This document shows, one piece after another, positions 4,111 through 41,864 of a stretch of 48,495 nt of DNA. The stretch's first letter is position 1. Each line of letters starts with the position of its first letter. This DNA is from Xanthobacteraceae bacterium (GTDB lineage Bacteria > Pseudomonadota > Alphaproteobacteria > Rhizobiales > Xanthobacteraceae), in NCBI GenBank assembly GCA_035601615.1, contig DATNNX010000252.1, forward strand, positions 1 through 48,495. Direction: 5' to 3'. The translations under genes and the position numbers were made by a program. The notes beneath the pieces were generated by a model, which was not told where the DNA came from, searched no databases, and worked only from the letters and a program-made list of their open reading frames with translations.

Positions 4111-4316
4111 GCAGTTTCTCCCTTGGCGCGGATGAACGCGCTCATGTGATTTGCTGAACCCTCGGCCTCGTGTCCGTCACGCGGCGGCGCAGTGGATTAT
4201 AGCGGAAAGTGTTCGGCCGACCACAAATGGCCGCCGCGGCCGATTGGCAACGGCATGCACGCTTGGATAGGGTCGATCGCAGAACAGATGGACTGCTGCA
4301 GCAGGGCGATCGTGCA

Positions 4317-6722
4317 ATGCTGACCAAAGCTTCGGCTCACGCCGGTTCCTTCATCGGGCGCCCCTTGCCGCGGTTCGAGGATCTGCGCTTTGTCCGCGGG
4401 AGCGGCAATTACACCGACGACGTCTCGCTGCCGGATCAGACCTACGCCGTATTCGTGCGCGCTCCGCACGCGCATGCCCGTATCGTGTCGATCGACACGT
4501 CGGCGGCGCGCCGCCGTCCAGGCGTGATCGCCGCGCTCGTCGGAGAGGATTATCTCGCCGACGGCCATATCGGTATGGCGCATCTTCCCAATCCGGCCGA
4601 CGCCCACGACGTGACGATGCCGAGCTTCCAGCCCACGCCGGAGCGCGAGGTCCTCGACCTGCTGCACTTGCCGCTTGCTAACGATTGCGTGCGCTTTGTC
4701 GGCGAGGCGGTCGCAATGGTGGTTGCCGAAACGCTTGCCGCCGCGCGCGATGCTGCCGAGGCGGTCGCGGTCGAGTACCAAGTCCTGCCGGCGGTAACCG
4801 ACGTCATGGAAGCGCTCGCGGACGACGCGCCCAGCATCTGGCCGCAGGCGCCCGGCAACGTCGCACTCGATTGCGCTTTCGGCGACCGCGCCGCCGTCGA
4901 GGCCGTCATGACCTCCGCGCACCTCGTCGTCCACGCGACGATCCGCAATCAGCGTACTTGCAGCGCGTTTATGGAGCCGCGTGCGGCGATCGGCAGCTAC
5001 GAGGCGACGGCAGCACGATATACGTTGATCTCGGGATGCCAGGGCGCGCATCGCCTGCGACACGCGCTGGCCGGCTGCCTCAAAGTGCCGCAAGATCACG
5101 TGCACGTGCTCTGTCCCGATGTGGGCGGCGCGTTCGGCTCGCGATTCAATATTTATCCCGAGCAGGTCGCAGTGGTGTGGGCGGCACGCCGTCTCGGTCG
5201 TCCGGTGAAATGGACGGGCGAGCGCGGCGAAGCGTTCCTCACCGACTATACCGCGCGCGACGTCGTCACTCGCGCGCAGCTCGCTTTCAATCGCCGCGGC
5301 CGCATGCTCGCGCTGGCGCTCGAGCTCACCGCCAATACCGGAGCGCACACCGTCTCATACGTTCCACTCAGCAACGGTTATCGCGTTGCCCCGACGGTCT
5401 ATGACGTTCCGACCGCATGGGTGCGCCTGCGCGGCGTGATGACCAACACCGTGCCGACGGCGCCGTTTCGCGGCGCCGGACGGCCCGAAGCTACCACGGT
5501 CATGGAGCGGCTCATCGACATCGCTGCAAGTCGCTTGAACATCAACCGGGTAGAGCTACGCCGGCGCAATCTGATCCGGCACGAGAACCTGCCCCACCGC
5601 ACGGCAACCGGGCTCACTTACGACAGCGGCGATTTTGCCGGCAATCTCGCCCGCGCGCTTGAAGCTGCCGACTGGGACGGCTTTCCGGCGCGTCGCAAGG
5701 AGGCGAAGAAGCGAGGCCGGCTGCTAGGAATCGGTGTAGCCAATTACGTCGAGACGCCGGTCGGCATGCCGCACGAGCGTGTCGCCATCAAGGTCTCGCC
5801 CGCGGGCCATGTCGCGCTCGTCGTCGGGACCCAGTCGAGTGGGCAGGGCCACGAGACGAGTTTCAGGCAGGTCGTGGCGGATCAGCTCGGCATCGACCCA
5901 CAGGCGATCGAATTCATCAGCGGTGACAGCGCGGCGCTTGCTTCCGGCGGCGGGACTCACTCCGACCGTTCCATGCGGCTCGCCGGATCGCTGATGGTCG
6001 AGACGTCGCGGGCGGTGATCGAAAAGGCTCGCCGCATCGCCGCGGTCGTGCTCGAGGTCGCCGCAGGCGACATTTCCTTCGCGGACGGCCTGTTCGTGGC
6101 GCCGAACAGCAATCGCCGGCTGAGCCTGTTCGATATTGCGCGCGCCGCTGACGAGCTCGCCTCGCTGCCCGACGATCTGCGCGGTCCGCTCGCGGCGGAA
6201 GCGAGCTTTACCGGGCGGATTCCCGCCTATCCGACTGGAGCCGCCGTCTGTGAGGCCGAGGTCGATCCGCAAACCGGCGCCATCGAAATCCGCCGCTACA
6301 CCTCGATCGACGACGGCGGACAGCCGATCAACCCGCTCATTCTGCATGGCCAGGTGCATGGCGGGGTGGCGCAAGGCGTGGGCCAAGCGATGCTGGAGGC
6401 AGCCGTCTACGAGCCCGGATCGGGCCAGCTCATCTCCGCAAGCTTTCTCGACTATGCTGTCCCGCGCGCAGATCACTTTCCGCATCTCGAGGTCGCGCTG
6501 ACGGAAGATCCGACCAAGGGCAACGCGCTGCGCGTCAAGGGCGGCGGCGAGGCCGGCATCACGCCGAGCTCGGCCGTGCTCCTGAATGCCGTCATCGACG
6601 CGCTCTCGGGGCTCGGCATCGAGCACATGGACCCGCCCGCCACGCCGCAGCGCGTGTGGCAGGCGATCCGCGCTGCGCGGGAGACAAAGCGCCTCAGCGC
6701 GGATTCCACGGATTCCAATTGA
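4317..6722 (+). CDS. Xanthine-dehydrogenase-family molybdopterin-binding large subunit (CoxL-like, not a form-I CO dehydrogenase)
   Basis: N-terminal FIGRPLPRFEDLRFVRGSGNYTDD and active-site-loop region TAPFRGAGRPEAT, roughly 800 aa. I take the start at ATG 4317 (MLTKASAH). Confidence 0.85.
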   Translation: MLTKASAHAGSFIGRPLPRFEDLRFVRGSGNYTDDVSLPDQTYAVFVRAPHAHARIVSIDTSAARRRPGVIAALVGEDYLADGHIGMAHLPNPADAHDVTMPSFQPTPEREVLDLLHLPLANDCVRFVGEAVAMVVAETLAAARDAAEAVAVEYQVLPAVTDVMEALADDAPSIWPQAPGNVALDCAFGDRAAVEAVMTSAHLVVHATIRNQRTCSAFMEPRAAIGSYEATAARYTLISGCQGAHRLRHALAGCLKVPQDHVHVLCPDVGGAFGSRFNIYPEQVAVVWAARRLGRPVKWTGERGEAFLTDYTARDVVTRAQLAFNRRGRMLALALELTANTGAHTVSYVPLSNGYRVAPTVYDVPTAWVRLRGVMTNTVPTAPFRGAGRPEATTVMERLIDIAASRLNINRVELRRRNLIRHENLPHRTATGLTYDSGDFAGNLARALEAADWDGFPARRKEAKKRGRLLGIGVANYVETPVGMPHERVAIKVSPAGHVALVVGTQSSGQGHETSFRQVVADQLGIDPQAIEFISGDSAALASGGGTHSDRSMRLAGSLMVETSRAVIEKARRIAAVVLEVAAGDISFADGLFVAPNSNRRLSLFDIARAADELASLPDDLRGPLAAEASFTGRIPAYPTGAAVCEAEVDPQTGAIEIRRYTSIDDGGQPINPLILHGQVHGGVAQGVGQAMLEAAVYEPGSGQLISASFLDYAVPRADHFPHLEVALTEDPTKGNALRVKGGGEAGITPSSAVLLNAVIDALSGLGIEHMDPPATPQRVWQAIRAARETKRLSADSTDSN

Positions 6723-12896: not shown

Positions 12897-14144
12897 ATGA
12901 ATATCCGCGAAACCGCGCCTCGGATTACCGAGCTCGAGAAGATTTCCACGCGTACCGACACCCGCGACTATCTGGCCAAAGCCGCGCCGACCAAGGAGAA
13001 GCTGAAGGACTGGCTCATCGTCGACGTCGATGCCCACGTCAACGAGACTGCGTTCTGGTCGGAAGTCACTGACCGCATCGATAACGAGGTTCTGCGTTAC
13101 ATCGCCGAGGCGTTCCGCGACCGCGGCCCGTTTCCCGGCTTGTTGAACGCCAACGGGCCGCTCTACCAGGACGTGGCCGGCCGCATCATGCACCAGCAGA
13201 AGCTCGCCGAGGCGACGCCGCCCGGACTGCACCGCCAAGTGCAGCTCACCCAACGCGCCATGGACGCGCTCGGCATCGATTACATGGTGGTGTTTCCAAC
13301 CCCGATGCTCTCGCTCGGCATGCACCCGCAGACCGATGCCGAAGTGGCGCTCGGCAATGCGTATAACCGCTGGTTGATCGAGGAGATCCTGCCCCAGGAC
13401 AAGCGCCAGAAGGCGCTGCTCTATCTACCGTTCAACGATCCCGACGCCTGCGTGGAGACGGTCGAGCGTTTCGCCGACGCGCCCGGCGTGGTCGGCTTCT
13501 CCGTCACCTCCACGCGCCACAAGCCGGTTTGGCACAATTCCTATATGCGGCTTTACGCGGCGCTGCAGGAGACGGGCAAGCCGCTCGGCTTCCATGCGGG
13601 CTTCAGCTGGGCCGATCCGTCGTTCCAGCAGCTCAACCGCTTCATCGGCATGCACTCGCTCTCGTTCGTGCACTTCAACATGATCCACATGACCAACTGG
13701 GTGCTCAACGGCCTGCCCGAGCGGTTTCCCAAGCTCAAGGTGATCTGGATCGAGAGCGGGCTTGCTTGGGTTCCTTTCGTCATGCAGCGGCTCGACTCCG
13801 AATACATGATGCGCACCTCGGAGTGCCCGCTGCTCAAGCGCAAGCCGAGCGAGTACATTCAGGAGATGTACTTCACCAGCCAGCCGCTCGAGCGCAGCAA
13901 CATGAAGCTCACCCAAGCCACCTTCGAGGCGATCAGCGCCGACACGCAACTGCTCTACGCTTCGGACTGGCCGCATTGGGATTTCGACGCGCCGAGCTCG
14001 ATCATCAAGCTGCCGTTCCTCAAAGAGGACGCCAAGCGCAACATTCTTGGGCTCAACGCCGCGCGGCTGTTCGGGCTCGAAGTGCCGGCGGCGAAGTCGG
14101 GCGTGAAGGCCTCGCCGCAGCGCGTCGCCGTGCCGGCCGAATGA
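12897..14144 (+). CDS. Amidohydrolase-2 (ACMSD/LigW-type metal-dependent hydrolase/decarboxylase) family protein, paralog 1
   Basis: N-terminal metal motif LIVDVDAHVNE and C-terminal YASDWPHWD, 415 aa. It is clearly paralogous to 24581-25831. Confidence 0.85.
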   Translation: MNIRETAPRITELEKISTRTDTRDYLAKAAPTKEKLKDWLIVDVDAHVNETAFWSEVTDRIDNEVLRYIAEAFRDRGPFPGLLNANGPLYQDVAGRIMHQQKLAEATPPGLHRQVQLTQRAMDALGIDYMVVFPTPMLSLGMHPQTDAEVALGNAYNRWLIEEILPQDKRQKALLYLPFNDPDACVETVERFADAPGVVGFSVTSTRHKPVWHNSYMRLYAALQETGKPLGFHAGFSWADPSFQQLNRFIGMHSLSFVHFNMIHMTNWVLNGLPERFPKLKVIWIESGLAWVPFVMQRLDSEYMMRTSECPLLKRKPSEYIQEMYFTSQPLERSNMKLTQATFEAISADTQLLYASDWPHWDFDAPSSIIKLPFLKEDAKRNILGLNAARLFGLEVPAAKSGVKASPQRVAVPAE

Positions 14145-14175
14145 TGGCCGGGCCAAGCGACTGCGTGGGGTTCGT

Positions 14176-14481
14176 ATGAGTTCATCCGCGGCCACGGATG
14201 CCGGTAGCGAATCCGGTGCGGCGTTCTGCGCATCGGTCGAGGATGCGCTCAAGAACGGCAGGCCGGATGCCGTGCCGGATGAAGCGCTGCAGCGCGTGCT
14301 CTCCGCGGCCGTGCGGCTCTATGCCGCCAAGTCGGAAGACCGCGCGCGAGAGCTTGCGCCATTCGGCGAGCAGCCGGTGAACGCGACCGAGGCGGTGACG
14401 GCGATCTGCGCGATCATGCGCGCGGCCGATCTCAACTTCTTCGATCTGCAAATGTGGTACCGCCGCGGCGAGCGCGAATGA
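14176..14481 (+). CDS. Small conserved hypothetical protein (cassette partner, copy 1)
   Basis: 101 aa with no domain I recognise. It is homologous by eye to 25892-26299 (EALQRVLSAAVRLYAA...ATEAV...AADLNFFDLQMW vs EALQALMAAVCKTYAA...ATEVM...AANLAVFELGMW). It is tightly packed between the amidohydrolase and Rieske genes. Confidence 0.65.
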   Translation: MSSSAATDAGSESGAAFCASVEDALKNGRPDAVPDEALQRVLSAAVRLYAAKSEDRARELAPFGEQPVNATEAVTAICAIMRAADLNFFDLQMWYRRGERE

Positions 14482-14503
14482 TTTACTAGATTCGGGTGAA
14501 GCG

Positions 14504-14878
14504 ATGAACGAGATCATGGTGGGCGAGCTCAGCGAGTTCGCGGAGGGTGGCTACCGCGTGCTGCGGGTCGATAGCTTCGAGTTCGGCATTTTTCGCCAAG
14601 GCGACCGCCTCGTGGCATACGAGAATCATTGCCCCCACGACGGCGGGCCGGTCTGCCAGGGCAAGGTGATCCCGCGCGTCGAGGAAGAGCTCGCGCCGGA
14701 TCAGACCACCCGCGGACTTCGTTTCTCCAAGAAGCGCAACATCGTCTGTCCTTGGCACGGCTGGGAATTCGACATTGAGACCGGCCGCCACTGCGGCGAC
14801 CCGAAATATCGCTTGCGTCCCGTCGACGTGAAGGTGCGTGACAACCGCGTTTATGTCAGCGTCCCGCCGGCAGCCTGA
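14504..14878 (+). CDS. Small Rieske [2Fe-2S] domain protein (124 aa), copy 1
   Basis: Ligand motifs CPH and CPWHG are present. There is no oxygenase catalytic domain. Confidence 0.88.
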   Translation: MNEIMVGELSEFAEGGYRVLRVDSFEFGIFRQGDRLVAYENHCPHDGGPVCQGKVIPRVEEELAPDQTTRGLRFSKKRNIVCPWHGWEFDIETGRHCGDPKYRLRPVDVKVRDNRVYVSVPPAA

Positions 14879-15049: not shown

Positions 15050-16048
15050 ATGACTACGTCCCTGCTTGAGCTGAGCATCGCCCTGTCGGACAACGAGCGC
15101 ACGCGGCCGTTGATCGAAGGCCGCGTCGTTCCGCAAGGAATCAAGCCGGTCGTCACGGTCGTGCATCCCTCCGAGATGTTCTGGCGGCAGCTGCGCTTCG
15201 CCGAATTCGACGTATCGGAAATGTCGATGTCCTCGCTCATCATCGCGACGTCGCGCGGCGATACCCGCTGGGTGGCGATCCCGGTCTTCACCATGCGCAA
15301 GTTCTTCCATACCAGCGTCATCGTGCGCAGGGATTCCGGCATTGCGGCGCCGGCGGACTTGCGCGGCAAGCGCATCGGCGTGCCGGAATATCAGCAGACC
15401 TGGGCGATCTGGTCGCGCGGCGTGCTGCAGGACGAATTCGGCGTGCATGCCCGCGACATCGAATGGTTCATGGAACGCAATCCGGAGAAAAGTCACGGCG
15501 GAGCGACGGGCTTTAACCCGCCGCCGGGCGTGCGGCTGCACCACATCCCCCCCAGCACGAATATCGGCGACATGCTGCTGCGCGGCGAGCTCGACGGGGC
15601 GCTGCTTTATCTCGTCCATCCCAATCTGATCGATCGCAGTACGGTCGATGTGTCGGGGGTGACGCGTCACCTCTTCCCCGATCCCGCGGCCGAAGGCCGG
15701 CGCTTCTACGCCAAGACCGGCTTGTTTCCGATCAACCATACCGTCGTGGTGCGCCGCTCGCTGCTCGAGCGCCATCCCTGGATCGCGCTCAATCTTTATT
15801 CCGCGTTCGTGGGGGCGAAGGAGGAAATCGCGCGCTGCGGCCAATCCCACCTGCAATGGTATTTCGAAACGGGATTGCTCGACGAGAGCGTCAACCGCAC
15901 GCTGGCGGACAACGATCCGCTGGCTTACGGCTTCAAGGCATCCCGCGCCGTGCTCGAAACCATCGCCCAATACGTGCACGAGCAGGGGTTGAGCGTTCGG
16001 CAGGTGAAGCTCGAGGAATTGTTCGCCGCCAGCACGCTCGACATGTGA
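15050..16048 (+). CDS. 4,5-dihydroxyphthalate decarboxylase-like protein (cytoplasmic PBP-fold)
   Basis: No signal peptide. The N-terminus (LSIALSDNERTRPLIEGRVVPQGI...FWRQLRFAEFDVSEMSMSS) matches my recollection of the PhtD-type family. Confidence 0.65.
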   Translation: MTTSLLELSIALSDNERTRPLIEGRVVPQGIKPVVTVVHPSEMFWRQLRFAEFDVSEMSMSSLIIATSRGDTRWVAIPVFTMRKFFHTSVIVRRDSGIAAPADLRGKRIGVPEYQQTWAIWSRGVLQDEFGVHARDIEWFMERNPEKSHGGATGFNPPPGVRLHHIPPSTNIGDMLLRGELDGALLYLVHPNLIDRSTVDVSGVTRHLFPDPAAEGRRFYAKTGLFPINHTVVVRRSLLERHPWIALNLYSAFVGAKEEIARCGQSHLQWYFETGLLDESVNRTLADNDPLAYGFKASRAVLETIAQYVHEQGLSVRQVKLEELFAASTLDM

Positions 16049-16088
16049 TTTGGCCGCGGATGAATCGTCTCATAAACGAGCGGCACGC

Positions 16089-17720
16089 ATGGGCGTGAGC
16101 AAAGGCTACGACTATGTGATCGTCGGCGGCGGCTCGGCCGGCTGCGTGCTGGCCAATCGCCTGAGCGAGGACGGCGCCGGGCGCGTGCTCTTGATCGAAG
16201 CTGGCGGCCGCGACCTCAATCCGCTCATCCATGTCCCGCTCGGTATGGGCAAGATGCACGAATACGACATGTTCAACTGGGGCTATTCCACCGAGCCCGA
16301 GCCGAACATGAACGGCCGCCGGATCGAAGCCATGCGCGGCAAAGTGCTGGGCGGATCGTCCTCGATCAATGTGATGGCCTATACGCGCGGCCATCGCGGC
16401 GACTATGACCGCTGGGCGCAGAAAGGCGCGCGCGGCTGGTCCTATGCCGACGTGCTGCCCTACTTCAAGCGCTGCGAGCGGTGGGAAGCCAGCGAGGATC
16501 GTTGGCGCGGCGGCGCGGGGCCGGTCGGCACGGAATTCGCCAGAACGGCCGACCCGCTCTACGACGCGTGGATCCAAGCGGCGCTCGCGGCCGGCTTCCC
16601 CGTGACCGACGACTATAACGGCAAGCAGCAGGAAGGTTTTGGCCGCGGCCAATACACCATCCGCGACGGATACCGCTCCTCGGCCGCAAGCGCCTATCTC
16701 AGGCCGGCGCGCAAGCGACCAAATCTCGAGGTTGCGACACGGGCGCATGCGACCCGCGTGCTGATGCGAGGGACCCGCGCGAGCGGTGTCGAATACCGCA
16801 AAGGTGGCCGCCTGGTGAGGGCCGAAGCCGAGCGGGAGGTGATCCTCTCGGCTGGCGCGTTCAACACGCCACCGCTGCTCATGCTGTCAGGAATCGGTCC
16901 GGCCGCGCATCTGCGCGAAATGGGCATCGAGCCGGTGATCGATTTGCCGGTCGGCAAGAACCTGCAGGATCACCTCGCGGTCATCGTCTTCTTCCGGCGC
17001 TTGGACGAAAGCACGTTCATCAAGCAGATGCGGTTCGACCGTATGGCGGTCAGCATGATCCGTGCCTACCTCTTCGGCACCGGCCCCGGTACGGTGGTGC
17101 CCGGCGGCTTGCACGCCTTCGTCAAGACGCGGCCGGAGTTTGCGGTGCCGGACATCGAGTTCATGTTCCGCGGCGCGCCGGCGGCGCCGCATTTGTGGTT
17201 TCCACTCATCCGCGCGGCCTATCTCGACGGCTACGGCATCCGCCCCACGCTCTTGCATCCCGACAGCCGCGGCGAAATCCTGCTGCGCTCGGCCGATCCG
17301 CGCGAGCCGCCGCGCATCGTCTACAAGTTCTTCTCCGCGCCGGACGACCTCCCCCGCCTGCGCGAAGGGTTCAAGCGCGCCCGCGATGTCGCCTATCAGA
17401 AGCCGATGATGCCCTATCGCGGCGCCGAGACCGCGCCCGGCGACAAGGTCAAGAGCGATGCTGAGATCGACGCCTGGATCAGGAATACTGCGATCACCGC
17501 GCATCATCCCTGCGGCACCTGTGCCATGGGAATGGGACCCAACACGGTCACCGACCCGCAGCTGCGGGTGCGTGGGATCGAGCACCTGCGCGTCGTCGAC
17601 GCCTCCGTCATGCCCGATCTCATCTCGGCGCACATCAATGCTTGCGTGCTGATGATTGCCGAGAAGGCGGCCGACCTGATCCGCAATAAGCCAGCGCTGC
17701 CGGCCGACTATGACGCATAG
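16089..17720 (+). CDS. GMC-family FAD oxidoreductase (choline/alcohol dehydrogenase-like)
   Basis: FAD fingerprint YDYVIVGGGSAGCVLANRLSED, GMC signature region and a C-terminal catalytic His region (HHPCGTCAMG). Confidence 0.9.
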   Translation: MGVSKGYDYVIVGGGSAGCVLANRLSEDGAGRVLLIEAGGRDLNPLIHVPLGMGKMHEYDMFNWGYSTEPEPNMNGRRIEAMRGKVLGGSSSINVMAYTRGHRGDYDRWAQKGARGWSYADVLPYFKRCERWEASEDRWRGGAGPVGTEFARTADPLYDAWIQAALAAGFPVTDDYNGKQQEGFGRGQYTIRDGYRSSAASAYLRPARKRPNLEVATRAHATRVLMRGTRASGVEYRKGGRLVRAEAEREVILSAGAFNTPPLLMLSGIGPAAHLREMGIEPVIDLPVGKNLQDHLAVIVFFRRLDESTFIKQMRFDRMAVSMIRAYLFGTGPGTVVPGGLHAFVKTRPEFAVPDIEFMFRGAPAAPHLWFPLIRAAYLDGYGIRPTLLHPDSRGEILLRSADPREPPRIVYKFFSAPDDLPRLREGFKRARDVAYQKPMMPYRGAETAPGDKVKSDAEIDAWIRNTAITAHHPCGTCAMGMGPNTVTDPQLRVRGIEHLRVVDASVMPDLISAHINACVLMIAEKAADLIRNKPALPADYDA

Positions 17721-20393: not shown

Positions 20394-21320
20394 TTACAAA
20401 TCCAGCACCAGCCGCTCGCTCTTGCAGCCGGCGCAGCAGATCATGACCTTGGTGTTGGAGGCCTGCTCCTCCTCGGTGAGGATGGCGTCGTGGTGCTCGG
20501 GGACCCCGGAGATCACCCGCTGCTCGCACGCGCCGCAGATGCCGAGTTCGCAGGAATAGTCGACGTCGACGCCGGCATCCAGCAGCACCTGCAGGATGCT
20601 CTTGCCCTCGGGGATGACGAATTCCTGTCCCGAGCGCGCGAGTTCGACCACGAACCCGCCCTTCTTGTCGGCCCCTTGCTTGGGCGTGAAATATTCGACG
20701 TGGATCTGCGCGCGCGGCCAATCCGCGGTCGCCGCCTCGAATGCCTTGAGCATCGGGGTGGGTCCGCAGCAATAGAGGTGTGCCTCACGTGGCGCCTCGG
20801 TGACGATCGAGTTGACGTCGAGGACTTTGCCGCAGTGCTCGTCGTCGAAATGGAAGTGCGTATGGCCGATCGCTTCGAGCGCTTGCAAGAAGGCCATGTC
20901 GGCGCGCGAGCGACAGGCATAGTAGAGCTGCCAGGAGCGTCCGAGCTTGTGCAAGCGCTGCACCATGCACCAGATCGGGGTGATGCCGATGCCGCCGGCC
21001 AGGAGCACGACATGGCCGGCGTCCTCCCCCAGCGGGAAATTGTTGCGCGGCGCGCTGATCTTGAGCGTCCTGCCGACGCGCAGCTCGTCGTGCACACAGC
21101 GCGAGCCGCCGCGGCTTGCCGGATCGCGCTTGACGGTGACGGTGTAGCTTAAAGGATCGGGCTCCGGCTCGATCAACGAGTACTGACGGATGAGCCCATT
21201 CGGCAAGTGCAGGTCGATATGGGCGCCGGGGTCATAGGGCGGCAACGGCTTTCCGTCCACTGGCGCAAACTCATAGGCGTTTGTGTCGCGCGCCGCGTAG
21301 CGGATCGCGCTCACACGCAT
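20394..21320 (-). CDS. PDR/VanB-family oxidoreductase (FMN/NAD-binding domains plus C-terminal plant-type [2Fe-2S])
   Basis: RQYSL flavin motif, GGIGITP NAD motif and a C-terminal CELGICGACE cluster. I take the start at ATG 21320 (MRVSAIRY, 308 aa). The longer GTG 21449 start is possible. Confidence 0.85.
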   Translation of the reverse strand: MRVSAIRYAARDTNAYEFAPVDGKPLPPYDPGAHIDLHLPNGLIRQYSLIEPEPDPLSYTVTVKRDPASRGGSRCVHDELRVGRTLKISAPRNNFPLGEDAGHVVLLAGGIGITPIWCMVQRLHKLGRSWQLYYACRSRADMAFLQALEAIGHTHFHFDDEHCGKVLDVNSIVTEAPREAHLYCCGPTPMLKAFEAATADWPRAQIHVEYFTPKQGADKKGGFVVELARSGQEFVIPEGKSILQVLLDAGVDVDYSCELGICGACEQRVISGVPEHHDAILTEEEQASNTKVMICCAGCKSERLVLDL

Positions 21321-24580: not shown

Positions 24581-25831
24581 CTAAGCCGCGGCGGCGAGAT
24601 TGCCGAAGCGCTTCAGGTTCTCCCGCTGCTTTTCATTGCGCGGCGGCAGCTTGAACAGCCGCGCGGCGGTGCCGCCGAGAATGTTGTGCTTGCCCTTCTC
24701 CGAGAGGAACGGCAAGTCGTAGATCGTGGCCGGCAGGTCGAAGTCCCAGTGCGGATAATCCGACGAGTAGAGGAGCTGCGTCTCGGCGTTGATCATGCGG
24801 AACGTGCATTCCAGCGCCTGGCGGTCCTGGATCTCGATCGGCTGCGAGGAATAGTACATGTCGCGCATATAGTCGGACGGCTTCTTCTTGAGGAGCGGTG
24901 CCTCCGACGGGCGCATCATGAATTCGTGATCGAGCCGCTGCATCAAGAACGGAACCCAAGCGAGCCCGGATTCGATCCAGATCACCGGCAGTTTGGGGAA
25001 GCGCTCGCCCATGCCGTTGATCACCCAATTGGTGCAGTGAAGGATGTTGTAGAAGGTGAAGCCGAGCGCGTGCACCGACAGGAAGCGGTTGCAGGCGCGG
25101 AACACCGGCTCGTTCCAGTTCGGCCCGGAGTGGAATGCGAGCGCGAGCCCGCGCTCCTCCAGCATGCGGTAGAGCCGCATATAGGCGTTATCGTTGACTT
25201 GCAGGTGGCGCACCGTCGTGACCATGAAGCCGGTCACGTGCTTGCGGCTGCCGAAGGTCTCGACCTGGCGCACGCAGGCGGCTGGATCAGAGAACGGCAG
25301 GCACAGCATGGAATACATGCGCCCGTCCGCCTCGGGCAGCACCTTCTCGGTGACCCAGCGGTTGTAGGCCCAGCAGAGGTCCGCCTCCATCTCCTTCTGC
25401 GGATGCATGCCGATGTTGAGCATGCCGGTCGGGAACAGGCAGGAGTAGTCCACGCTCATCGCATCCATCCAGCGCTCGCCGAGCTGCACGTCGCGATGCT
25501 TGCCGTTTTGCTCCGTCTTCTCGGAGCGCCGCAGCGGATAGCGGGTCACGCGCCCGCCCATGTCCTGGATGAAGCCCGCGTTGGTCGGCACGACCGAGCC
25601 GCGATCGGTCAGGCCGCGGCCGCCCATGGTCCACTGCCGGAACACGTCGTTTTCCATGTAGGGCAGGATGTCGCTGTAGTGCTCGTTTTCGTAGTGGTGC
25701 GCGTCCACATCGACGATGAGAATATCGTCGAGCTTGCGCCGCACCGCCTGCTTGCGGGCGTGGGCGAGAAGTCTGCTGGTGTTCAACTCATCGACAGAGA
25801 CGCGTCGACCGCGTTCAGCGAGGAGGTCCAT
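24581..25831 (-). CDS. Amidohydrolase-2 family protein, paralog 2
   Basis: LIVDVDAHHYE and YSSDYPHWD motifs, 416 aa. AGGAGA RBS. Collinear similarity to 12897-14144. Confidence 0.85.
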   Translation of the reverse strand: MDLLAERGRRVSVDELNTSRLLAHARKQAVRRKLDDILIVDVDAHHYENEHYSDILPYMENDVFRQWTMGGRGLTDRGSVVPTNAGFIQDMGGRVTRYPLRRSEKTEQNGKHRDVQLGERWMDAMSVDYSCLFPTGMLNIGMHPQKEMEADLCWAYNRWVTEKVLPEADGRMYSMLCLPFSDPAACVRQVETFGSRKHVTGFMVTTVRHLQVNDNAYMRLYRMLEERGLALAFHSGPNWNEPVFRACNRFLSVHALGFTFYNILHCTNWVINGMGERFPKLPVIWIESGLAWVPFLMQRLDHEFMMRPSEAPLLKKKPSDYMRDMYYSSQPIEIQDRQALECTFRMINAETQLLYSSDYPHWDFDLPATIYDLPFLSEKGKHNILGGTAARLFKLPPRNEKQRENLKRFGNLAAAA

Positions 25832-25891: not shown

Positions 25892-26299
25892 CTAACGGCC
25901 GGTCCAGCTCTGCCACATGCCGAGTTCGAATACGGCGAGATTGGCAGCCTTGAGCAGCCCGCTCGCGGTGATCATGACTTCGGTGGCGGTGGCGCCGCCA
26001 CGCTGCGGAAGCGGCAGCACCTCATCGCCCGCCTCGACTTGTGCCGCGTAGGTCTTACACACGGCGGCCATGAGCGCCTGCAGCGCCTCGGTGCTCAGTG
26101 CATCGCGCCGGCCGCTGGCAAGCGCCCGCTCGAGCTCGGCGGCAAGCCGCTTCGCCTGTCCGGAGCCGGCACCGTTCGCGGTTTCACCCGCCGGTTTTGG
26201 TTCTCGCTCGACCGACTTGGCGCCTCTGGTGCGCTTTGCGGCCGGCCGCGCCGTCACTGCCGCGCGCCGCGCGGCCTTTGCCGCCCTAGGTGAGGACAT
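25892..26299 (-). CDS. Small conserved hypothetical protein (cassette partner, copy 2) with a basic Ala/Lys/Arg-rich N-terminal extension
   Basis: The C-terminal 80 aa are homologous to 14176-14481. ATG 26299 overlaps the Rieske gene 3' end by 14 nt. An alternative GTG lies at 26257. Confidence 0.6.
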   Translation of the reverse strand: MSSPRAAKAARRAAVTARPAAKRTRGAKSVEREPKPAGETANGAGSGQAKRLAAELERALASGRRDALSTEALQALMAAVCKTYAAQVEAGDEVLPLPQRGGATATEVMITASGLLKAANLAVFELGMWQSWTGR

Positions 26300-26651
26300 A
26301 AACTTCGTCGCCTTTCTCCAGCACCTTGTACTTGCGCAGCTTGAGCTTGCGATCCGACACGCATTCGCCGGTCTTCATGTCGTATTCGTAGCCGTGCCAC
26401 GGACAGACGAAATGCATTTCGTTCTCGGAGAAGTAGAGTCCCTGCGAGGTCTTGTCGGGCAACAGCCGCTCCTCGACTTTGGCGATGGTGAGGCCTTCGC
26501 AAGCGGGGCCGCCCTGGTGCAGGCAGAAATTGCTGTAGGCGTAGAATTGGCCCTCATGCCGGAAGATGCCGATCTCGTTGTCTCCGGCGAAGATGATCCG
26601 GCGGTCGCCGTCCTTGAACTCGGCGATCTTGCCGACATACTGCTCGGCCAT
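26286..26651 (-). CDS. Small Rieske [2Fe-2S] domain protein (121 aa), copy 2
   Basis: CLH and CPWHG ligand motifs. AAGGAGG RBS before ATG 26651 (MAEQYVGKIAEF). Confidence 0.88.
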   Translation of the reverse strand: MAEQYVGKIAEFKDGDRRIIFAGDNEIGIFRHEGQFYAYSNFCLHQGGPACEGLTIAKVEERLLPDKTSQGLYFSENEMHFVCPWHGYEYDMKTGECVSDRKLKLRKYKVLEKGDEVYVLT

Positions 26652-26831: not shown

Positions 26832-27758
26832 TCACGCCATCTTATTGGTCAGCGTTCCGATTTTCTCGATCCAGATTTTGACGACGTCGCCCGCCTTGAG
26901 GAATTCCCCGCGCGCCGCGCCGACCCCGGCGGGCGTGCCGGTGAGAATGATGTCGCCCGGATGGAGCGTCATCCCGCTCGATAATTGCGCGATCTGCTCG
27001 GCCAGATTGAAGATCATATTCTTGCTGTGGGAGTCCTGCTTGAGGACGTCGTTCACCCACAGCTTGAGGCTGAGCTTTTGCGGGTTGCCGATGTCGCGCG
27101 CCGGCACGATCCAAGGGCCCAGCGGGCAGGACCCGTCGAAGGTCTTGTGCTTGGTCCAATCGGACTTGAACGGGGAGGTGTCGCTGATGTTCGCCCGCCG
27201 CCCGCGGTCGCGCGCGGACAGGTCATTTGCCGCGGTATAGCCGGCAACGTAATCGAGCGCCTTGTCCTGGGGCACGTTTTTGGCCGCTCTGCCGATCACC
27301 GCCGCAAGCTCGACCTCCCAATCCATCTCGCTCGAGTACCCGGAAATCTTCACCGTCGCGCTGGGGTCGGCGAGCGTTCGCGCCGCCTTGATGAAATGCC
27401 ATGCCTTGAGGCCTTGGGTGTGCGGATCTGGCTCGGGCGGCCGGTTCATGCGCCGGGCCATTTCCGCGGCATGATCGGCATAGTTGGCGCCGGCGCAATA
27501 GATCGCCGATGGCCAGCGCACGGGTGCCAATAATTTCGCGCGTCCGAGCGGCAGCGGCTTGATGCGGCTCTTGCCCGCCGCCGCAGCCGCCTTGCGCAGG
27601 ACGCCTTGCGCCGTTCTCCAGTCCTCGAGGATGCCGAGCACCGTTGCATAGGCGGCTTTGCCGGTGAGTTTGGCGGCATCGAACACCTTGTCGTCGATCA
27701 CCAGCCCCGCGCGCGCGCCATCGGAGGCTTGGTAGGTCGCGAGCTTGTAGCCGTCCAT
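26832..27758 (-). CDS. Fumarylacetoacetate hydrolase (FAH) family protein
   Basis: The C-terminal FAH fold matches (DWEVELAAVIG, NDLSARD, GDIILTGTPAGVG). I take the start at ATG 27758 (MDGYKLATY), preceded by GGGGAGA. Confidence 0.88.
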   Translation of the reverse strand: MDGYKLATYQASDGARAGLVIDDKVFDAAKLTGKAAYATVLGILEDWRTAQGVLRKAAAAAGKSRIKPLPLGRAKLLAPVRWPSAIYCAGANYADHAAEMARRMNRPPEPDPHTQGLKAWHFIKAARTLADPSATVKISGYSSEMDWEVELAAVIGRAAKNVPQDKALDYVAGYTAANDLSARDRGRRANISDTSPFKSDWTKHKTFDGSCPLGPWIVPARDIGNPQKLSLKLWVNDVLKQDSHSKNMIFNLAEQIAQLSSGMTLHPGDIILTGTPAGVGAARGEFLKAGDVVKIWIEKIGTLTNKMA

Positions 27759-28013: not shown

Positions 28014-28901
28014 ATGGTCAAAGCGAGACGCGTCGGTCACGCGACCTTCGAGACGCCCGATCTGGAAAAGGCCATCACTTATTACGGCGAGTTCATGGGA
28101 CTGATCGTCGCCGAGCGCGAAAAGGATCGCGCCTTTCTCGCCACCAAGATCGGGCAGCTGGTGATCGAGCTCAACAAGGCGGATCGGGCCCACTGCATCA
28201 AGCTGTCTTTCGAGGTCGCGGCCAATTCCGATTTCGGCGAATTGGCGCGCGAGCTATCCAAGGACGGCGTACGCAGCGAACTGCGCAACGATTCCGTTCC
28301 CGGCATGGGCCAAGTCCTGTCGTTCAAGGACGACAAAGGAACCATTATCGACCTGTTCAAAGACTGGAGCTATCTCGCCAAGCACGCGCAGGTCGCCGGC
28401 GTCGGGCCGCTCAAGCTCGGGCATGTCGCTTTCTTCACGCCCGACATCCAGCGCACGGTTGCGTTCTACGAGCGGGTCCTCGGCTTTCGCGTCTCCGATT
28501 GGATCGGGGATTTTTTCTGCTTCATGCGCTGCAACACGGATCATCACACCGTGAATTTCTTCACCGGGCCCGACGTGAAGCTGCATCACATCGCCTTCGA
28601 GCTCAAGGATTTCATGCATCTCCAGAACTCTTGCGACGTTATGGGCCAGAAACAGGTGCCGATCATCTGGGGTCCCTTGCGGCATGGGCCGGGGCACAAC
28701 GTCGCCACCTACCATCGCAATCCGGATGACCAGGTCGTTGAATTTTTCTCCGAGCTCGATCAAATGATCGACGAGGAGCTCGGCTATTTCGAGCCGCGGC
28801 CCTGGCACCGCGACACGCCGCAGCGGCCCAAGCGCTGGACGCCGGGCAAGACCAACGTGTGGGGCCCCTCGCCGGAGGAGGATTTCCACCGGACACAGTG
28901 A
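28014..28901 (+). CDS. Two-domain VOC-superfamily extradiol ring-cleavage dioxygenase
   Basis: Two glyoxalase-like modules. Candidate Fe ligands are LGHVAF, LHHIAF and VVEFFSE. AAAGGAGAA RBS. Confidence 0.85.
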   Translation: MVKARRVGHATFETPDLEKAITYYGEFMGLIVAEREKDRAFLATKIGQLVIELNKADRAHCIKLSFEVAANSDFGELARELSKDGVRSELRNDSVPGMGQVLSFKDDKGTIIDLFKDWSYLAKHAQVAGVGPLKLGHVAFFTPDIQRTVAFYERVLGFRVSDWIGDFFCFMRCNTDHHTVNFFTGPDVKLHHIAFELKDFMHLQNSCDVMGQKQVPIIWGPLRHGPGHNVATYHRNPDDQVVEFFSELDQMIDEELGYFEPRPWHRDTPQRPKRWTPGKTNVWGPSPEEDFHRTQ

Positions 28902-28938: not shown

Positions 28939-29715
28939 CTAAGGGCGCACCGCCGGCGTTTCGACCGGCATGCCGCGCGCGCGCCACATCAGGTAAAGCT
29001 CGAGATCGACAAGTTCGCTCGCTCCGTAGGGATAAGAGACCGCGCGCATGCCGAACAGACAGTTGCGCAGCCGCCGCTGCAGCGATCCGAGCGTTTGCCA
29101 CTCGAGGCGATAGAGCGGATATCCGGTCGGATGGCCCTGCGGGATCGCCGCGCCGGCAAGCTTTTGGCCCCAATTGTCGTCGTGGCACTGCGCGCAGGCG
29201 AGATTGAGCTGGCCTTGGCGCTCTATGAACATCGCGCGGCCGGCTTCCAGAAAAGGCCTTATCCGCGCGTCATCCGCGATGTCGATCGGCATGCCGCGCG
29301 ATTGCTCCCCGATATAGGCTGTGAGCGCCAGCAGCTCCTTGCTTTCGAAGGCAAGCGGGGTCGCGCGCTGCTGTTGAGTGCGGCACATATTGATCCGCTG
29401 TTCGAGATCGACCGGGCGGCCGCGCACCGCGTTGAATGCGGGATAGCGCGCCGCCACGCCTTTCATGCTCGTGCCCGCGTCGCCGTGGCAGTCCGCGCAT
29501 GATTTGCCGGCAGAACCCTCCTTACGCTGCCAGAGGGTCTCGCCGTCGAGCACCCACAACGTGGCGGGATTGGCGCTATCGTCGTCCTGCATCGCGCGTG
29601 TCTCTCGCGCCATGAAGTCGTAACCCGACTTGCGCTCCGAAAACGGAATGTCCGCCGCAGCCGCCGCAGCGCCCAAGGCGGCAAGCATGAAAACAGCAGC
29701 GGCCGCCCGCGTCAT
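28939..29715 (-). CDS. soxA: Dihaem cytochrome c SoxA
   Basis: Signal peptide, two haem motifs (CADCH and CAQCH) and the conserved GYPLYRLEWQTLGSLQRRLRNC region. ATGA overlap with soxZ. Confidence 0.9.
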   Translation of the reverse strand: MTRAAAAVFMLAALGAAAAAADIPFSERKSGYDFMARETRAMQDDDSANPATLWVLDGETLWQRKEGSAGKSCADCHGDAGTSMKGVAARYPAFNAVRGRPVDLEQRINMCRTQQQRATPLAFESKELLALTAYIGEQSRGMPIDIADDARIRPFLEAGRAMFIERQGQLNLACAQCHDDNWGQKLAGAAIPQGHPTGYPLYRLEWQTLGSLQRRLRNCLFGMRAVSYPYGASELVDLELYLMWRARGMPVETPAVRP

Positions 29716-30032
29716 TCGACCGTGATATTGACGGACTCGGCCGCCGTAAAGCCGTTGTCGCCGGTCCATTCGAAGCTCAGCGTGCCGCTTTCGCCGGCAA
29801 CGGTGAAAAAGGTCAGAAACGGATTGGCGGCGATAGCCGGGAACAGCTCGGCGCGGAAAATTTCCTCTCCATTATATTTGCAGGTGAATTCGGTGATGAT
29901 GTCGCGCGGCACCGGCTTCCCGGTACTGTCAGGGCGAAAGCCGGTCTCCATGACATGCGAGATCAGCGTCTTGATCTCGATCACTTCGCCGCGCTTGGCC
30001 TTCGCCGGCGCATTGATGAGGGCGCGCGCCAT
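29712..30032 (-). CDS. soxZ: Sulfur-carrier complex subunit SoxZ
   Basis: 106 aa. KRGEVIEIKTLISHVMETGFRPDSTGKPVPRDII matches my recollection of SoxZ closely. Confidence 0.88.
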   Translation of the reverse strand: MARALINAPAKAKRGEVIEIKTLISHVMETGFRPDSTGKPVPRDIITEFTCKYNGEEIFRAELFPAIAANPFLTFFTVAGESGTLSFEWTGDNGFTAAESVNITVE

Positions 30033-30034
30033 GC

Positions 30035-30523
30035 TCAGCTCCCTTCGAGACACGCGGCAAGGGTGACGACAACCTCGACCTCGTCCGACCAGAACGAGCC
30101 GTCGCTCATCTGCGCCACGGCAACGACCTTCTGGGTATCGGCGAGGCGAATGCGGGTCGAGAAGCTCGCCCGCCCGGCGCGTGGGCCGAAACCAGCGCCG
30201 ATGACGTTCGGCTGCGGATTTTTCTCGGTGAAGACGTGGATCGCCTTGACGTGGTCGTCTTGCGTCATCGGGCTTTCGCAGGACACCGTGAGCGGAACGG
30301 CATTGCCGTTCTCGATCAATGCGGGCACGTCGATCTTGACCTTGCCCTTCTTGAGCGGCGCCTCGCCGACGACGTTTCGGATCGCGGCGTGCATCGATGC
30401 CGGCGTGGCGGAGCTTTGCTCGACCGCAAGCGGCAACACGATGCCTGTGGCGCCGGCGAGCGCTGCCGTCTCGAGCAAGAAGCGGCGCCGTGTCCTCTGC
30501 AGCGTGCCGTCGTCGCGGGTCAT
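30035..30523 (-). CDS. soxY: SoxY-related carrier protein with variant C-terminal arm (...VTLAACLEGS instead of ...GGCGG)
   Basis: Tat signal QRTRRRFLLETAALAGA. The SoxY core matches (ENGNAVPLTVS, VKAIHVFTEKNP). I verified the C-terminus by hand translation of 30035-30076. GAGGAG RBS before ATG 30523. Confidence 0.85.
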   Translation of the reverse strand: MTRDDGTLQRTRRRFLLETAALAGATGIVLPLAVEQSSATPASMHAAIRNVVGEAPLKKGKVKIDVPALIENGNAVPLTVSCESPMTQDDHVKAIHVFTEKNPQPNVIGAGFGPRAGRASFSTRIRLADTQKVVAVAQMSDGSFWSDEVEVVVTLAACLEGS

Positions 30524-30528
30524 GGTGC

Positions 30529-31029
30529 TCACTCCTCGCGCAGCGTCGCGAGATAGGCGACGACATCCTCGATCTGTTCCGCGCTCAGCACCGGCTTGCC
30601 TTGAAACGCCGGGGCGACGCGCGTGAGACCATCGACTCGATAATAGGGCGGCATGATCGTGTTCGGGTTGAGCCGGCTCGCATCCACGATCCGCAGCCGC
30701 AGCTGACCTTCAGACCAGCGCGCTCCGCTTCCTTTGAGGTCTGGTGCGAGTGTGCCCTGGAACTTCTCCTTCGGGAAGGGCCCGTTGTGGCAGAGCAGGC
30801 AGAGCCCCTCCTGCCGGTTAACGACGATACTGCGCCCGCGTTCCACATCGCCCTTTGCGCCGGTCAACGAATGCGGGATTGCGTCTCCAACGACGGTATA
30901 AGGACGCAGTTGCTCTTCGGCCCGCGCGCCATCGCATGCTGCGATCATCGCGGCGAGCGCGATCGCCGCGATGCGCGCGCCGCAACGCTCAGCCAAAAAC
31001 TTCGGTGGTGATCGTTTTGAACCAGGCAT
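30529..31029 (-). CDS. soxX: Monohaem cytochrome c SoxX
   Basis: Haem motif CLLCH and the conserved MPPYYR and [13 protein letters not shown] regions. The ATG 31029 start overlaps soxF by 41 nt. A TTG at 30996 is an alternative. Confidence 0.85.
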
Positions 31030-32254
31030 TCGCGAAAGTGGCTTCTAGCGCGCGCGTGGCGTTCGGCGCATCGAGCGGGCTCACGCCGGCCGTCCCTTCG
31101 ATGTCCTTGATCTGACCATCCGCCGGCCGGTACACGCCTTCGATCGAGATGCCGTAGTCGGGCGCCACCAAGCTGTAGCAGGTGTTGATGAGCCTCGGCT
31201 CATCCGGCGTGCCGCCGGCAAGAAGCTTCGCCACCGCGGCGGCGCAGACCTTGGCCTGGGCATTGGCCGAGAACGCGGATTTCGGCATCGCGCCTGCGAT
31301 CGAGGCGTCGCCGACGACGTGGATATTGGGCTGCAATTTGGATTCGAACGTGACAGCGTCGATCGGGCACCAACCGGTGCGATCGGCGACGCCGACGATC
31401 TCGGCGATGCGGCCCGCCTTCTGCGGCGGAATGACGTTTGCGACATCGGCCTTGTGGCGGTCGAAATCCGTGATCAGCGTCATCGCACCAACGTCGACCG
31501 AAGTAACCTTGCCGCCCTTCGATAACGATACCCATTCGAGATTGGGATAGAGCGCTTTCCACGCGTTCTCGAACAGGCGCTGCTTGGAGAAGGCGTCCTT
31601 GGCATCGAGGATGATCAGCTTCGATTTCGGCTTCTTGGTTTTGAGGTAGTAGGCGATCAGGCTTGCCCGCTCGTAAGGACCTGGCGGGCAGCGGAAGGGA
31701 TTGGCGGGCGCCGAGATCACGACGGTGCCGCCGTCCTCCATCGCCTCGAGCTGCCGGCGCAGTAGCAGCGTCTGCTCGCCGGCTTTCCAGGCATGCGGCA
31801 TGCGTTCGGCGGCCGTCTCGGTATAGCCGGGCAGGGCGTCCCAGCGGATGTCGATGCCAGGCGAGAGCACTAGGCGGTCATAGGCAAGCTCCGCGCCATT
31901 GCCAAGCGTCACCGTCCGTCGCTGGGGATCGATGGCGGTCGCGGGCGAAAACTGGACGGCCACCTGATCGGTCGCGAACCGATCGTAGCCGAATTGTTGT
32001 GCGGCGAGCTCACGCAACCCGGCGATCACCAAGTTGCTGAACGGGCAGGCGATGAACGTGCGGTTCGCCTCGACCAGGGTCACGCTGATGCGCGGATCGA
32101 TGCGTTTGATGAAACGGGCGCAGGTCGCGCCCCCAAATCCGCCGCCCACCACGACGACGCGAGCGCCTGCGCCTTGCGCAATGGCCGGGAGCGGCAACAA
32201 GGCCGCGCCGGCAGTGACGGTTTTGAGGAATTCACGCCGGTTTGTGCGCCTCAT
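30989..32254 (-). CDS. fccB: Flavocytochrome c sulfide dehydrogenase flavoprotein subunit (FccB/SoxF)
   Basis: Tat signal [14 protein letters not shown] fingerprint [14 protein letters not shown] and the conserved [13 protein letters not shown] region. GGAGG RBS. Confidence 0.9.
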
Positions 32255-34774: not shown

Positions 34775-35244
34775 GGCAGTCTCGCTCCGCTCACGCGCCG
34801 GCCCGCGACGGCGTGGATCGCGGCGCGGATGCGCTGGTAGGTGCCGCAGCGGCAGATATTCGTGATGGCGGCGTCGATCTCCGCGTCGCTCGGATGAGGC
34901 TTCTCCTCGAGCAACGCGGCCACCGCCATCATCATTCCGCTCTGGCAATAGCCGCATTGCGGAACCTCGAGATCGAGCCACGCCTGCTGCACGGGATGGA
35001 GCGCGCCGTTTCGTCCCAGGCCTTCGATGGTGGTGATGTGCTTGTCAGCGGCCGTGCTCACCGGAACCGAACAAGAACGGATCGGCGCGCGGTCGATGTG
35101 GACCGTGCAGGCCCCGCATTGCGCGATCCCGCAGCCGTATTTGGTGCCGAGGAGCCCGAGCGTGTCCCGCAGCACCCAGAGCAGCGGCGTCTCCGGATCG
35201 ACATCGACGTCGTGGGCCCGTCCATTCACTGTAAGACGCGCCAT
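34771..35244 (-). CDS. [2Fe-2S]-binding small subunit, IorA/CoxS-like (pair 1)
   Basis: The two cluster motifs are [12 protein letters not shown] and [10 protein letters not shown]...CRCGTY. GGGAGAG RBS before ATG 35244. Confidence 0.9.
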
Positions 35245-37606: not shown

Positions 37607-37620
37607 GGCTGCCTCCCCGC

Positions 37621-41859: not shown

Positions 41860-41864
41860 GGCGA

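Follow-up and report, generated by a model that had tools for sequence, protein, structure and literature searches.

We describe two paralogous three-gene cassettes in a 48,495-nucleotide stretch of a Xanthobacteraceae bacterium genome (assembly GCA_035601615.1, contig DATNNX010000252.1; the whole stretch is hereafter the window), each encoding a PF04909 amidohydrolase-fold protein (A), a small protein (S) and a small Rieske-type [2Fe-2S] ferredoxin (R). Each cassette is likely, with a probability of about 0.8, to encode the oxygen-activating part of a multicomponent monooxygenase of the amidohydrolase-related dinuclear oxygenase (ARO) family, with S as a fourth, clade-confined structural or coupling subunit. 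The core A/R pairing is an already described enzyme family; the S family is previously undescribed and, with its aromatic-catabolic setting, is the new part of the system. An earlier note on this DNA had supposed that the trio might be a three-component enzyme, but the three known components are oxygenase, ferredoxin and reductase, which makes S an extra, fourth protein.

Cassette 1 lies on the forward strand and comprises A1 (12897-14144, 415 aa, PF04909 E = 8e-32), the putative ARO catalytic subunit, S1 (14176-14481, 101 aa), a putative ARO-clade-specific accessory component, and R1 (14504-14878, 124 aa, PF00355 E = 3e-13), the putative electron donor to A1. Cassette 2 lies on the reverse strand and comprises R2 (26286-26651, 121 aa, starting MAEQYVGK, PF00355 E = 1e-14), S2 (25892-26299, 135 aa), an S1 paralogue with a basic, Ala/Lys/Pro-rich N-terminal tail, and A2 (24581-25831, 416 aa, PF04909 E = 3e-21), the predicted ARO oxygenase; the Pfam cut-off for the two PF04909 matches is 26.4 bits. 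The R2 stop and S2 start overlap by 14 nt, and the S2 start at 26299 is backed by full-length 135-aa homologues beginning MSSP(R/K). Open reading frames (ORFs) were found exactly where the earlier note had placed both cassettes, including the gaps of 31 nt (A1/S1) and 22 nt (S1/R1) in cassette 1, and its judgement that all three protein pairs are homologous was borne out by pairwise BLASTP, with identities of 51% for A1/A2 (E = 3e-136), 37% for S1/S2 (E = 5e-15) and 45% for R1/R2 (E = 1e-37). The same three families do recur as described, but the reversal of gene order between the copies (A-S-R in cassette 1, R-S-A in cassette 2, with S central in both) had been missed. The profile searches proposed in that note assigned A to PF04909 and R to PF00355, and returned no Pfam or NCBIfam match for S1 or S2. 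Scans for promoters and terminators gave no more hits than expected by chance and did not delimit the operons.

Because all of the sequence-level features of ARO membership were found in them, A1 and A2 are, as judged from sequence, members of the family that includes AibH2, SfbO, PtmU3 and DitZ. The ARO superfamily is defined by an N-terminal D-x-H and a C-terminal D-x-P-H-x-D/E, the latter reportedly present in no characterised PF04909 hydrolase or decarboxylase (PMC13154177). We looked for a PF04909 TIM barrel, a D-x-H on the first beta strand and a D-x-P-H-x-[D/E] after at least ~200 residues. A1 carries D45-A-H47, within IVDVDAH, and D357-W-P-H360-W-D362, so that both motifs singled out earlier (DVDAH and SDWPHWD) are present, and A2 carries the same D-A-H, also within IVDVDAH, and D-Y-P-H-W-D; the strand-1 position of D-x-H in both proteins was derived from alignment. 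The A1 ligand set is completed by H233 and E286, which are invariant in AROs of the S-carrying clade and in S-less AROs, align with the conserved His and Glu of 8SM6 and 8SM7, and correspond by order to His201 and Glu255 of AibH1. Seven residues (D45, H47, H233, E286, D357, H360 and D362 in A1 numbering) were thus invariant across an alignment of A1, A2 and six plasmid ARO homologues, three with S and three without. The D-x-P-H-x-D motif was invariant in the alignment and in all full-length ARO relatives at the loci, whose N-terminal motif reads D-A-H or D-S-H. Oxygenases of the S clade are 405-422 aa long and exceed S-less AROs by 40-60 residues, mainly through an N-terminal extension of ~25-40 residues that is not found in the S-less AROs in the alignment.

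When A1 was searched against all PDB sequences, the best match was 8SM7 (D3EI84, E = 4.6e-42), followed in order by 8SM6 (SfbO, 1.3e-31), 8SM9 (W7L2Y2), 6M1W (AibH1H2), 8SM8 (B6JH23) and 6OMP (PtmU3), of which D3EI84, W7L2Y2 and B6JH23 are ARO candidates (PMC10811679). ARO structures matched at E values from 5e-42 to 3e-13, with the AibH chains at 5e-29, ahead of all decarboxylases; the classical PF04909 decarboxylases (LigW, gamma-resorcylate decarboxylase and ACMSD) matched at 1e-12 or weaker. The non-redox PF04909 class (LigW, gamma-resorcylate decarboxylase, ACMSD, LigI and LigJ) is marked by a mononuclear or absent metal site, an N-terminal motif other than D-x-H and the lack of D-x-P-H-x-D/E; A1 and A2, which carry both ARO motifs, do not fit it. 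The earlier note had been unable to place the link between an amidohydrolase-2 protein and a Rieske protein in any characterised pathway, but this pairing is what defines ARO monooxygenases (PMC7782822, PMC10811679, PMC13154177). Its notion of a TIM-barrel protein tied to redox chemistry proved apt, A1 and A2 matching an ARO-type redox enzyme served by a Rieske protein. AibH1H2-AibG-AibF was described in 2021 (PMC7782822), SfbO and 3,307 Rieske-linked ARO candidates were reported in 2024 from a search for PF04909 genes no more than three genes away from that of a small Rieske protein (PMC10811679), and ~17,000 ARO sequences were reported in 2026 (PMC13154177). In the mechanism that we propose, the seven residues within the TIM barrels of A1 and A2 would form a carboxylate-bridged two-metal site, with Fe2 or Mn/Fe as the predicted metal content, and this dinuclear site would reduce O2 and hydroxylate a C-H bond of the substrate.

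By their ligands and gene position, R1 and R2 are assigned to the ARO-type Rieske ferredoxins, for which we required a C-x-H...C-x-x-H motif in a stand-alone protein of <250 aa within three genes of a PF04909 gene. The ligands read C43-P-H45...C82-P-W-H85 in R1 and C-L-H...C-P-W-H in R2, and one gene, that of S, separates R from A. Both proteins align with Rieske proteins whose genes are immediately adjacent to ARO genes in Haloarcula, S. meliloti and Pseudomonas. A six-frame scan of the window for Rieske motifs yielded R1 and R2 as the only plausible genes and no Rieske oxygenase alpha subunit, as had been claimed before. R1 and R2 would hand single electrons to the ARO dinuclear site, R to A being the presumed path. 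The spacing between the C-x-H and C-x-x-H loops is 36-37 residues in the ARO-associated Rieske ferredoxins (14630-14758 in R1 and 26394-26525 in R2), about twice the usual. An additional Cys (C51 in R1) is invariant in these ferredoxins. The Rieske partners of S-less AROs share the inter-loop insert, shortened by 5 residues in S. meliloti and Pseudomonas.

The proposal that the trio is a functional unit held in a co-occurrence survey, in which S lay between A and R in all ~170 loci examined, wherever the contig allowed. Species-representative genomes contributed 80 loci (35 A-S-R, orthologous to cassette 1, and 45 R-S-A, orthologous to cassette 2), with the trio complete where the contig allowed. 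A further 86 loci were obtained with divergent S proteins as bait in metagenomes, plus five plasmids, and comprised 54 R-S-A and 21 A-S-R arrangements, 9 loci truncated by a contig end and 2 in which overlapping ORF calls had upset the sorting; three further, more distant members, found on long contigs, were also arranged A-S-R. Cultured carriers of the trio included Phaeobacter, Salipiger, Thioclava, Aminobacter, Sinorhizobium mexicanum and Mesorhizobium sp. L-2-11, in which RefSeq names the three products 'amidohydrolase family protein', 'hypothetical protein' and 'Rieske (2Fe-2S) protein'. Neighbouring genes of the trio share 4-14 nt at junctions such as R2/S2 in the window and A/S in loci L175 and L176. 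A Rieske-S fusion upstream of an ARO gene was also found, either a rare natural one or the result of an in-frame deletion; on contig WNGQ01041013.1 of a metagenome-assembled genome (MAG; L167, 1639-2199), a single ORF joins the first 97 Rieske residues, with the four ligands kept, to the S core. Near-identical S1-type trios also occurred in MAGs labelled Chthoniobacterales, Croceibacterium and 'Parcubacteria' (L032, L003; protein P0443), assignments that are probably binning errors rather than true hosts.

More distant ARO-Rieske pairs were organized differently. At the loci inspected in Haloarcula, Halorientalis, Halostagnicola, S. meliloti pSymA, Mesorhizobium WSM1497 and Pseudomonas MPC6, ARO homologues 27-34% identical to A1 had a Rieske gene abutting the ARO gene and no S between them, and S therefore marks one ARO clade. 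The S-less pairs of S. meliloti pSymA (L169), Pseudomonas sp. MPC6 (L170) and Mesorhizobium WSM1497 (L174) have a divergent LysR regulator gene and a 'hybrid-cluster NAD(P)-dependent oxidoreductase' nearby, with betB, choX or ABC-transporter genes in the same neighbourhood. They appear to represent a separate ARO subsystem, with its own reductase type and possibly quaternary-amine substrates.

The S family itself is large. A profile search with S1 and S2 returned at least 5,936 clusters at 90% identity, and an exhaustive HMMER scan of representatives gave 986 clusters at 50% identity, 384 of them at E <= 1e-10; none of the S proteins returned with an annotation had a Pfam domain or a name beyond 'hypothetical'. 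The best-scoring 150 members are 64-210 aa long, and the conserved core is C-terminal in nearly all of them. Comparison of S1 with 35 orthologues gave 242, 224 and 743 differences at codon positions 1, 2 and 3, respectively, and the S2 core gave 1182, 899 and 1992, a third-position excess from which we infer that the S reading frame is under purifying selection. An AlphaFold2 model of S1, built on a 56-sequence alignment, is a three-helix bundle (helices 4-26, 35-55 and 70-99; mean predicted local distance difference test score 78), for which Foldseek returned zero matches in the PDB. Invariant or near-invariant residues (E54, A70, T71, L81, A83, A84, F89, L91, M93 and W94) fall mostly in the last helix, and S is probably without a bound cofactor since no Cys or His is conserved. 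The basic, Ala/Lys/Pro-rich tail of S2-type proteins is not family-wide, S1-type proteins lacking it. In S2 it occupies the N-terminal 45 residues (26165-26299, reverse strand), with an isoelectric point of ~11.9, and is probably disordered; in some relatives (P0295, P0334, P0336 and P0347) it reaches ~110 residues. Pfam DUF7854 was considered for S and rejected, matching 7 of 56 S proteins and only below threshold (19.3 bits for P0121 and 13.4 for P0163 against a cut-off of 32). In the Roseobacter-type P0121 and P0163 these weak matches cover most of the S core, and the similarity may reflect a remote relative or noise. A small ORF following a haloarchaeal ARO-Rieske pair, tried as a bridge between the two families, matched neither DUF7854 nor S.

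Between the cassettes, on the reverse strand, lies a gene for a PDR-type flavin mononucleotide (FMN)/NAD/[2Fe-2S] reductase (20394-21320; 308 aa from the ATG at 21320), a candidate NADH:ferredoxin reductase for both cassettes. PF00175 matched residues 149-237 of the long reductase ORF and PF00111 its C terminus, where a C-x4-C-x2-C motif is found, and no Pfam model matched the FMN domain; similarity to an annotated PDR/VanB protein of Phaeobacter scored 234 bits. The protein has the make-up of the PDR/VanB/AibF class (an FMN barrel, an NAD domain and a C-terminal plant-type [2Fe-2S] domain in ~320 aa), and by these sequence features it is of the same class as AibF. AibF is a 322-aa FMN/[2Fe-2S] NADH reductase that reduces the Rieske ferredoxin AibG, which in turn serves AibH1H2 (PMC7782822). 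As the sole gene of such a class between the cassettes, it is a reasonable donor for both, and R1 and R2 would be reduced by an NADH-dependent FMN/[2Fe-2S] reductase, possibly this one supplied in trans; its assignment to the cassettes is a guess. The earlier proposal that this reductase partners the cassettes therefore stood as to class, which is that expected of an AibF-type third component, but found no support in conserved synteny, with a homologue within 6 kb of the trio in 0 of 21 long loci of the cassette-1 type (type-1) and 2 of 35 of the cassette-2 type (type-2). A PDR-type reductase is encoded near the trio in three Rhodobacterales plasmids, adjoining a phthalate-type operon, and in L175, a Burkholderiales MAG locus, a PDR-type reductase, an Nramp transporter, A, S and R form one gene string. 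This string (contig JAEUOR010000047.1, 4530-8658) is all on one strand, and the ARO start abuts the Nramp stop. The presence of a Mn/Fe importer in the L175 operon fits a Mn-containing cofactor.

Positions associated with metal preference (gamma positions) gave a mixed signature. Rieske-partnered 'low-potential, Mn-dependent' AROs (L-AROs) require a hydrophobic gamma1, a hydrophilic gamma2 and an aromatic gamma4 together, and aromatic gamma4 and gamma5 residues have been proposed as the Rieske ferredoxin docking surface (PMC13154177, Table 1 for the former). In A1, gamma4 (W361) and gamma5 (F363) are aromatic, as in ferredoxin-partnered AROs; W361 is L-ARO-like and gamma1 (A46) is ambiguous. 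F133 (13293-13295) aligns with SfbO T108, a position occupied by Phe in S-clade AROs versus Thr in the S-less AROs of S. meliloti and Pseudomonas, and Phe there is H-ARO-like. That T108 is gamma2 is our own reading of the text of PMC13154177; if it is correct, the S clade mixes high-potential and low-potential ARO markers. Given this mixed signature, we do not choose between Fe2 and Mn/Fe.

Several known systems resemble the cassettes. The 2-aminoisobutyrate hydroxylase AibH1H2-AibG-AibF of Rhodococcus wratislaviensis (PMC7782822, PMC10401708) has the same PF04909 TIM barrel and dinuclear ligand set, a dedicated small Rieske ferredoxin, a ~320-aa FMN/[2Fe-2S] NADH reductase and a non-catalytic partner, which in Aib is essential. 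It differs in that the partner, AibH1, is a 373-aa zinc-binding protein of the amidohydrolase fold, whereas S is an unrelated three-helix protein of ~100 aa; the reductase gene is in the Aib operon and separate here, and the Aib substrate is an amino acid, in contrast to the aromatic-acid context of the cassettes. The closest solved structures to A1 are those of SfbO (of the SfbO/SfbR pair) and of D3EI84, W7L2Y2 and B6JH23, the Rieske-linked L-ARO candidates (PMC10811679, PMC13154177), with which it shares D-x-H, D-x-P-H-W-D, aromatic gamma4 and gamma5 and the adjacency of the ARO gene to a small Rieske gene. A1 and A2 differ from them in their greater length (40-60 residues, the N-terminal extension) and in the Phe in place of SfbO T108. 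Neither ARO paper (PMC10811679, PMC13154177) makes mention of a small accessory protein. No similarity of S to MmoB/TmoD-type effectors, or to any PDB entry, was detected in sequence or fold. Toluene-4-monooxygenase combines a four-helix-bundle diiron oxygenase with a Rieske ferredoxin and a small effector, and PaaB of phenylacetyl-CoA epoxidase is a small bridging subunit. Systems of the toluene-4-monooxygenase type resemble the cassettes, by analogy only, in the chain from NADH reductase through Rieske ferredoxin to a carboxylate-bridged dinuclear oxygenase and in having a small cofactor-less protein among the subunit genes, and differ in using a four-helix bundle rather than a TIM barrel. 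Two other parallels were discarded: PicB (6-hydroxypicolinate monooxygenase), considered as a possible match, proved in its preprint to be a standard Rieske alpha/beta oxygenase, and the paper on a riboflavin-catabolism system describes no ARO-Rieske system.

Within the monooxygenase that we propose, S, as a ~90-residue three-helix bundle, would bind the oxygenase, the ferredoxin or both and would be a non-catalytic structural or coupling subunit, paralleling AibH1 or the small effector and bridging subunits. The fixed adjacency of S to A and R in two gene orders, the stop/start overlaps, the lack of cofactor ligands and the Rieske-S fusion are together consistent with S being produced in step with A and R and acting on an A-R complex. 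A structural or coupling role is favoured because there is precedent for it, AibH2 needing the non-catalytic AibH1, which its authors suggested may stabilise the complex or aid electron transfer from the ferredoxin (PMC7782822). Several observations weigh against this interpretation. SfbO and AibH1H2 are active without any S-like protein (PMC7782822, PMC10811679), and S is therefore dispensable for ARO chemistry in general. The reductase is scarcely ever syntenic with the trio, the metal-preference markers are mixed (Ala at gamma1, probable gamma2 Phe, Trp at gamma4), the sole Rieske-S fusion, in which both partners are truncated, may have arisen as a deletion artefact, and the S clade is known from sequence alone. 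A stronger version, that S is an obligatory fourth component defining a new class of ARO monooxygenase, docking on the oxygenase N-terminal extension and gating or positioning the ferredoxin, is one that we put forward tentatively and hold to be somewhat less probable than its negation. If true, S would be the first effector or coupling subunit of TIM-barrel dinuclear oxygenases, independent of MmoB-type effectors.

The main competing explanation, which we consider unlikely, is that S is an assembly factor or metallochaperone that loads Mn/Fe into the ARO or folds it. MmoD and DmpK-type proteins play such a part for diiron monooxygenases. S is small and restricted to one clade, carboxylates (E54, E72 and D85) make up its few conserved polar residues, and in L175 an Nramp metal importer immediately precedes A-S-R, a hint that the supply of metal may be a dedicated one; in addition, metalation of characterised AROs in E. 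coli is poor or heterogeneous (PMC10811679). However, S has neither conserved His or Cys nor a recognisable metal-binding motif, S-less AROs assemble without such a factor, and the strict placement of S between A and R, with stop and start codons that overlap, points to co-production in stoichiometric amounts. That S is instead a small regulator, such as an anti-activator or sensor partner, riding in the operon outside the enzyme is highly improbable. Small helical proteins are often regulatory and the histone-H1-like basic tail of S2 could bind nucleic acid, but this tail is missing from S1-type and many other members and so is not a conserved function, no DNA-binding domain matched S, and regulators are rarely locked between two enzyme subunit genes in both orders. 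We give least credence, very little indeed, to A1 and A2 being ordinary non-redox amidohydrolase-2 enzymes, with the Rieske protein and S serving an oxygenase encoded elsewhere. PF04909 does hold many decarboxylases and hydratases (LigW, gamma-resorcylate decarboxylase, LigJ), and the aromatic-acid catabolism neighbourhood includes another decarboxylase; yet D-x-H and D-x-P-H-x-D are reported absent from characterised PF04909 hydrolases and decarboxylases, ARO structures outscored decarboxylases by 30 orders of magnitude in the PDB search, the window encodes no Rieske oxygenase alpha subunit and the Rieske gene is tied to the ARO gene in ~170 loci.

The conserved neighbours of both cassettes point to aromatic-acid catabolism. 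Downstream of cassette 1 on the same strand are genes for a 4,5-dihydroxyphthalate decarboxylase homologue (15050-16048; PDB 9JP7, E = 7e-60) and a GMC-family, choline-dehydrogenase-like flavin adenine dinucleotide (FAD) oxidoreductase (16050-17720; PF00732, PF05199; NF002550, 602.6 bits). The decarboxylase homologue is conserved downstream of type-1 trios, following the trio in 18 of the 21 long type-1 loci, and was found in three of the five first-fetched plasmid loci (the three Rhodobacterales); the GMC oxidoreductase was present in 16 of the 21, and the Mesorhizobium trio likewise has a GMC gene nearby. The 15050-16048 product has a weak periplasmic-binding-protein Pfam match, and its plasmid homologues are annotated 'ABC transporter substrate-binding protein', a label that is probably a systematic mis-annotation. 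The cassette-2 string begins with a gene for an FAH-family, HpaG-like hydrolase/isomerase (26832-27758, reverse strand, start at 27758; PF01557, E = 6e-69), and a two-domain extradiol ring-cleavage dioxygenase of the VOC/glyoxalase fold (28014-28901, forward strand; PF00903 in two stretches) is divergent from it. In all 35 long type-2 loci the FAH-family gene precedes the trio and the extradiol dioxygenase faces it. NCBIfam matches were of HpaG type for the FAH-family gene, and HpaD and catechol 2,3-dioxygenase were the best for the dioxygenase, all of them below the curated cut-offs.

Elsewhere, the Aminobacter trio is accompanied by genes for an aldehyde dehydrogenase and a FAD oxidoreductase, protocatechuate 4,5-cleavage genes and pobA, the Rhodobacterales trios by the phthalate-type operon and an alpha-hydroxy-acid oxidase, and a thiamine pyrophosphate enzyme is encoded near the trio in L177 and in the window. 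The window also encodes three molybdenum-hydroxylase large subunits (4209-6722, 32621-34981 and 35426-38008), sulfur oxidation proteins (SoxA, SoxY and flavocytochrome c sulfide dehydrogenase; 28939-32254) and a hydantoinase A/B pair (40099-44288), which together make it a broad island of catabolic and lithotrophic genes, of a kind typical for soil Xanthobacteraceae. The two paralogous systems would feed different aromatic-acid branches, the actual substrates being suggested by gene context. A1 and A2 would hydroxylate an sp3 C-H (a methyl, methoxy or benzylic/alpha carbon) of an aromatic acid, and the resulting alcohol or hemiacetal would be oxidised or collapse, with decarboxylation or ring cleavage to follow. 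The cassette-1 product would pass to the GMC alcohol oxidoreductase and the dihydroxyphthalate-type decarboxylase, and cassette 2 would make, or act beside, a catechol that the extradiol dioxygenase would cleave and the FAH-family enzyme would process. Hydroxylation of sp3 C-H bonds of aromatic acids is consistent with these neighbourhoods but unproven.

Few AROs have been characterised and most are still annotated as amidohydrolases. In the loci described here, the 'amidohydrolase family protein' would be re-annotated as an oxygenase, the 'hypothetical protein' as a conserved component and the 'ABC substrate-binding protein' as a decarboxylase homologue. Reconstitution of these enzymes would call for the co-expression of three genes rather than two, plus a PDR-type reductase. 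The S-carrying clade is large and mainly alphaproteobacterial, with at least one Burkholderiales MAG, and may offer a handle on how the interaction between ferredoxin and oxygenase is organized. Ultimately, the conserved neighbours place these putative oxygenases within the aromatic-acid catabolism of soil and marine bacteria, narrowing the substrates to screen.

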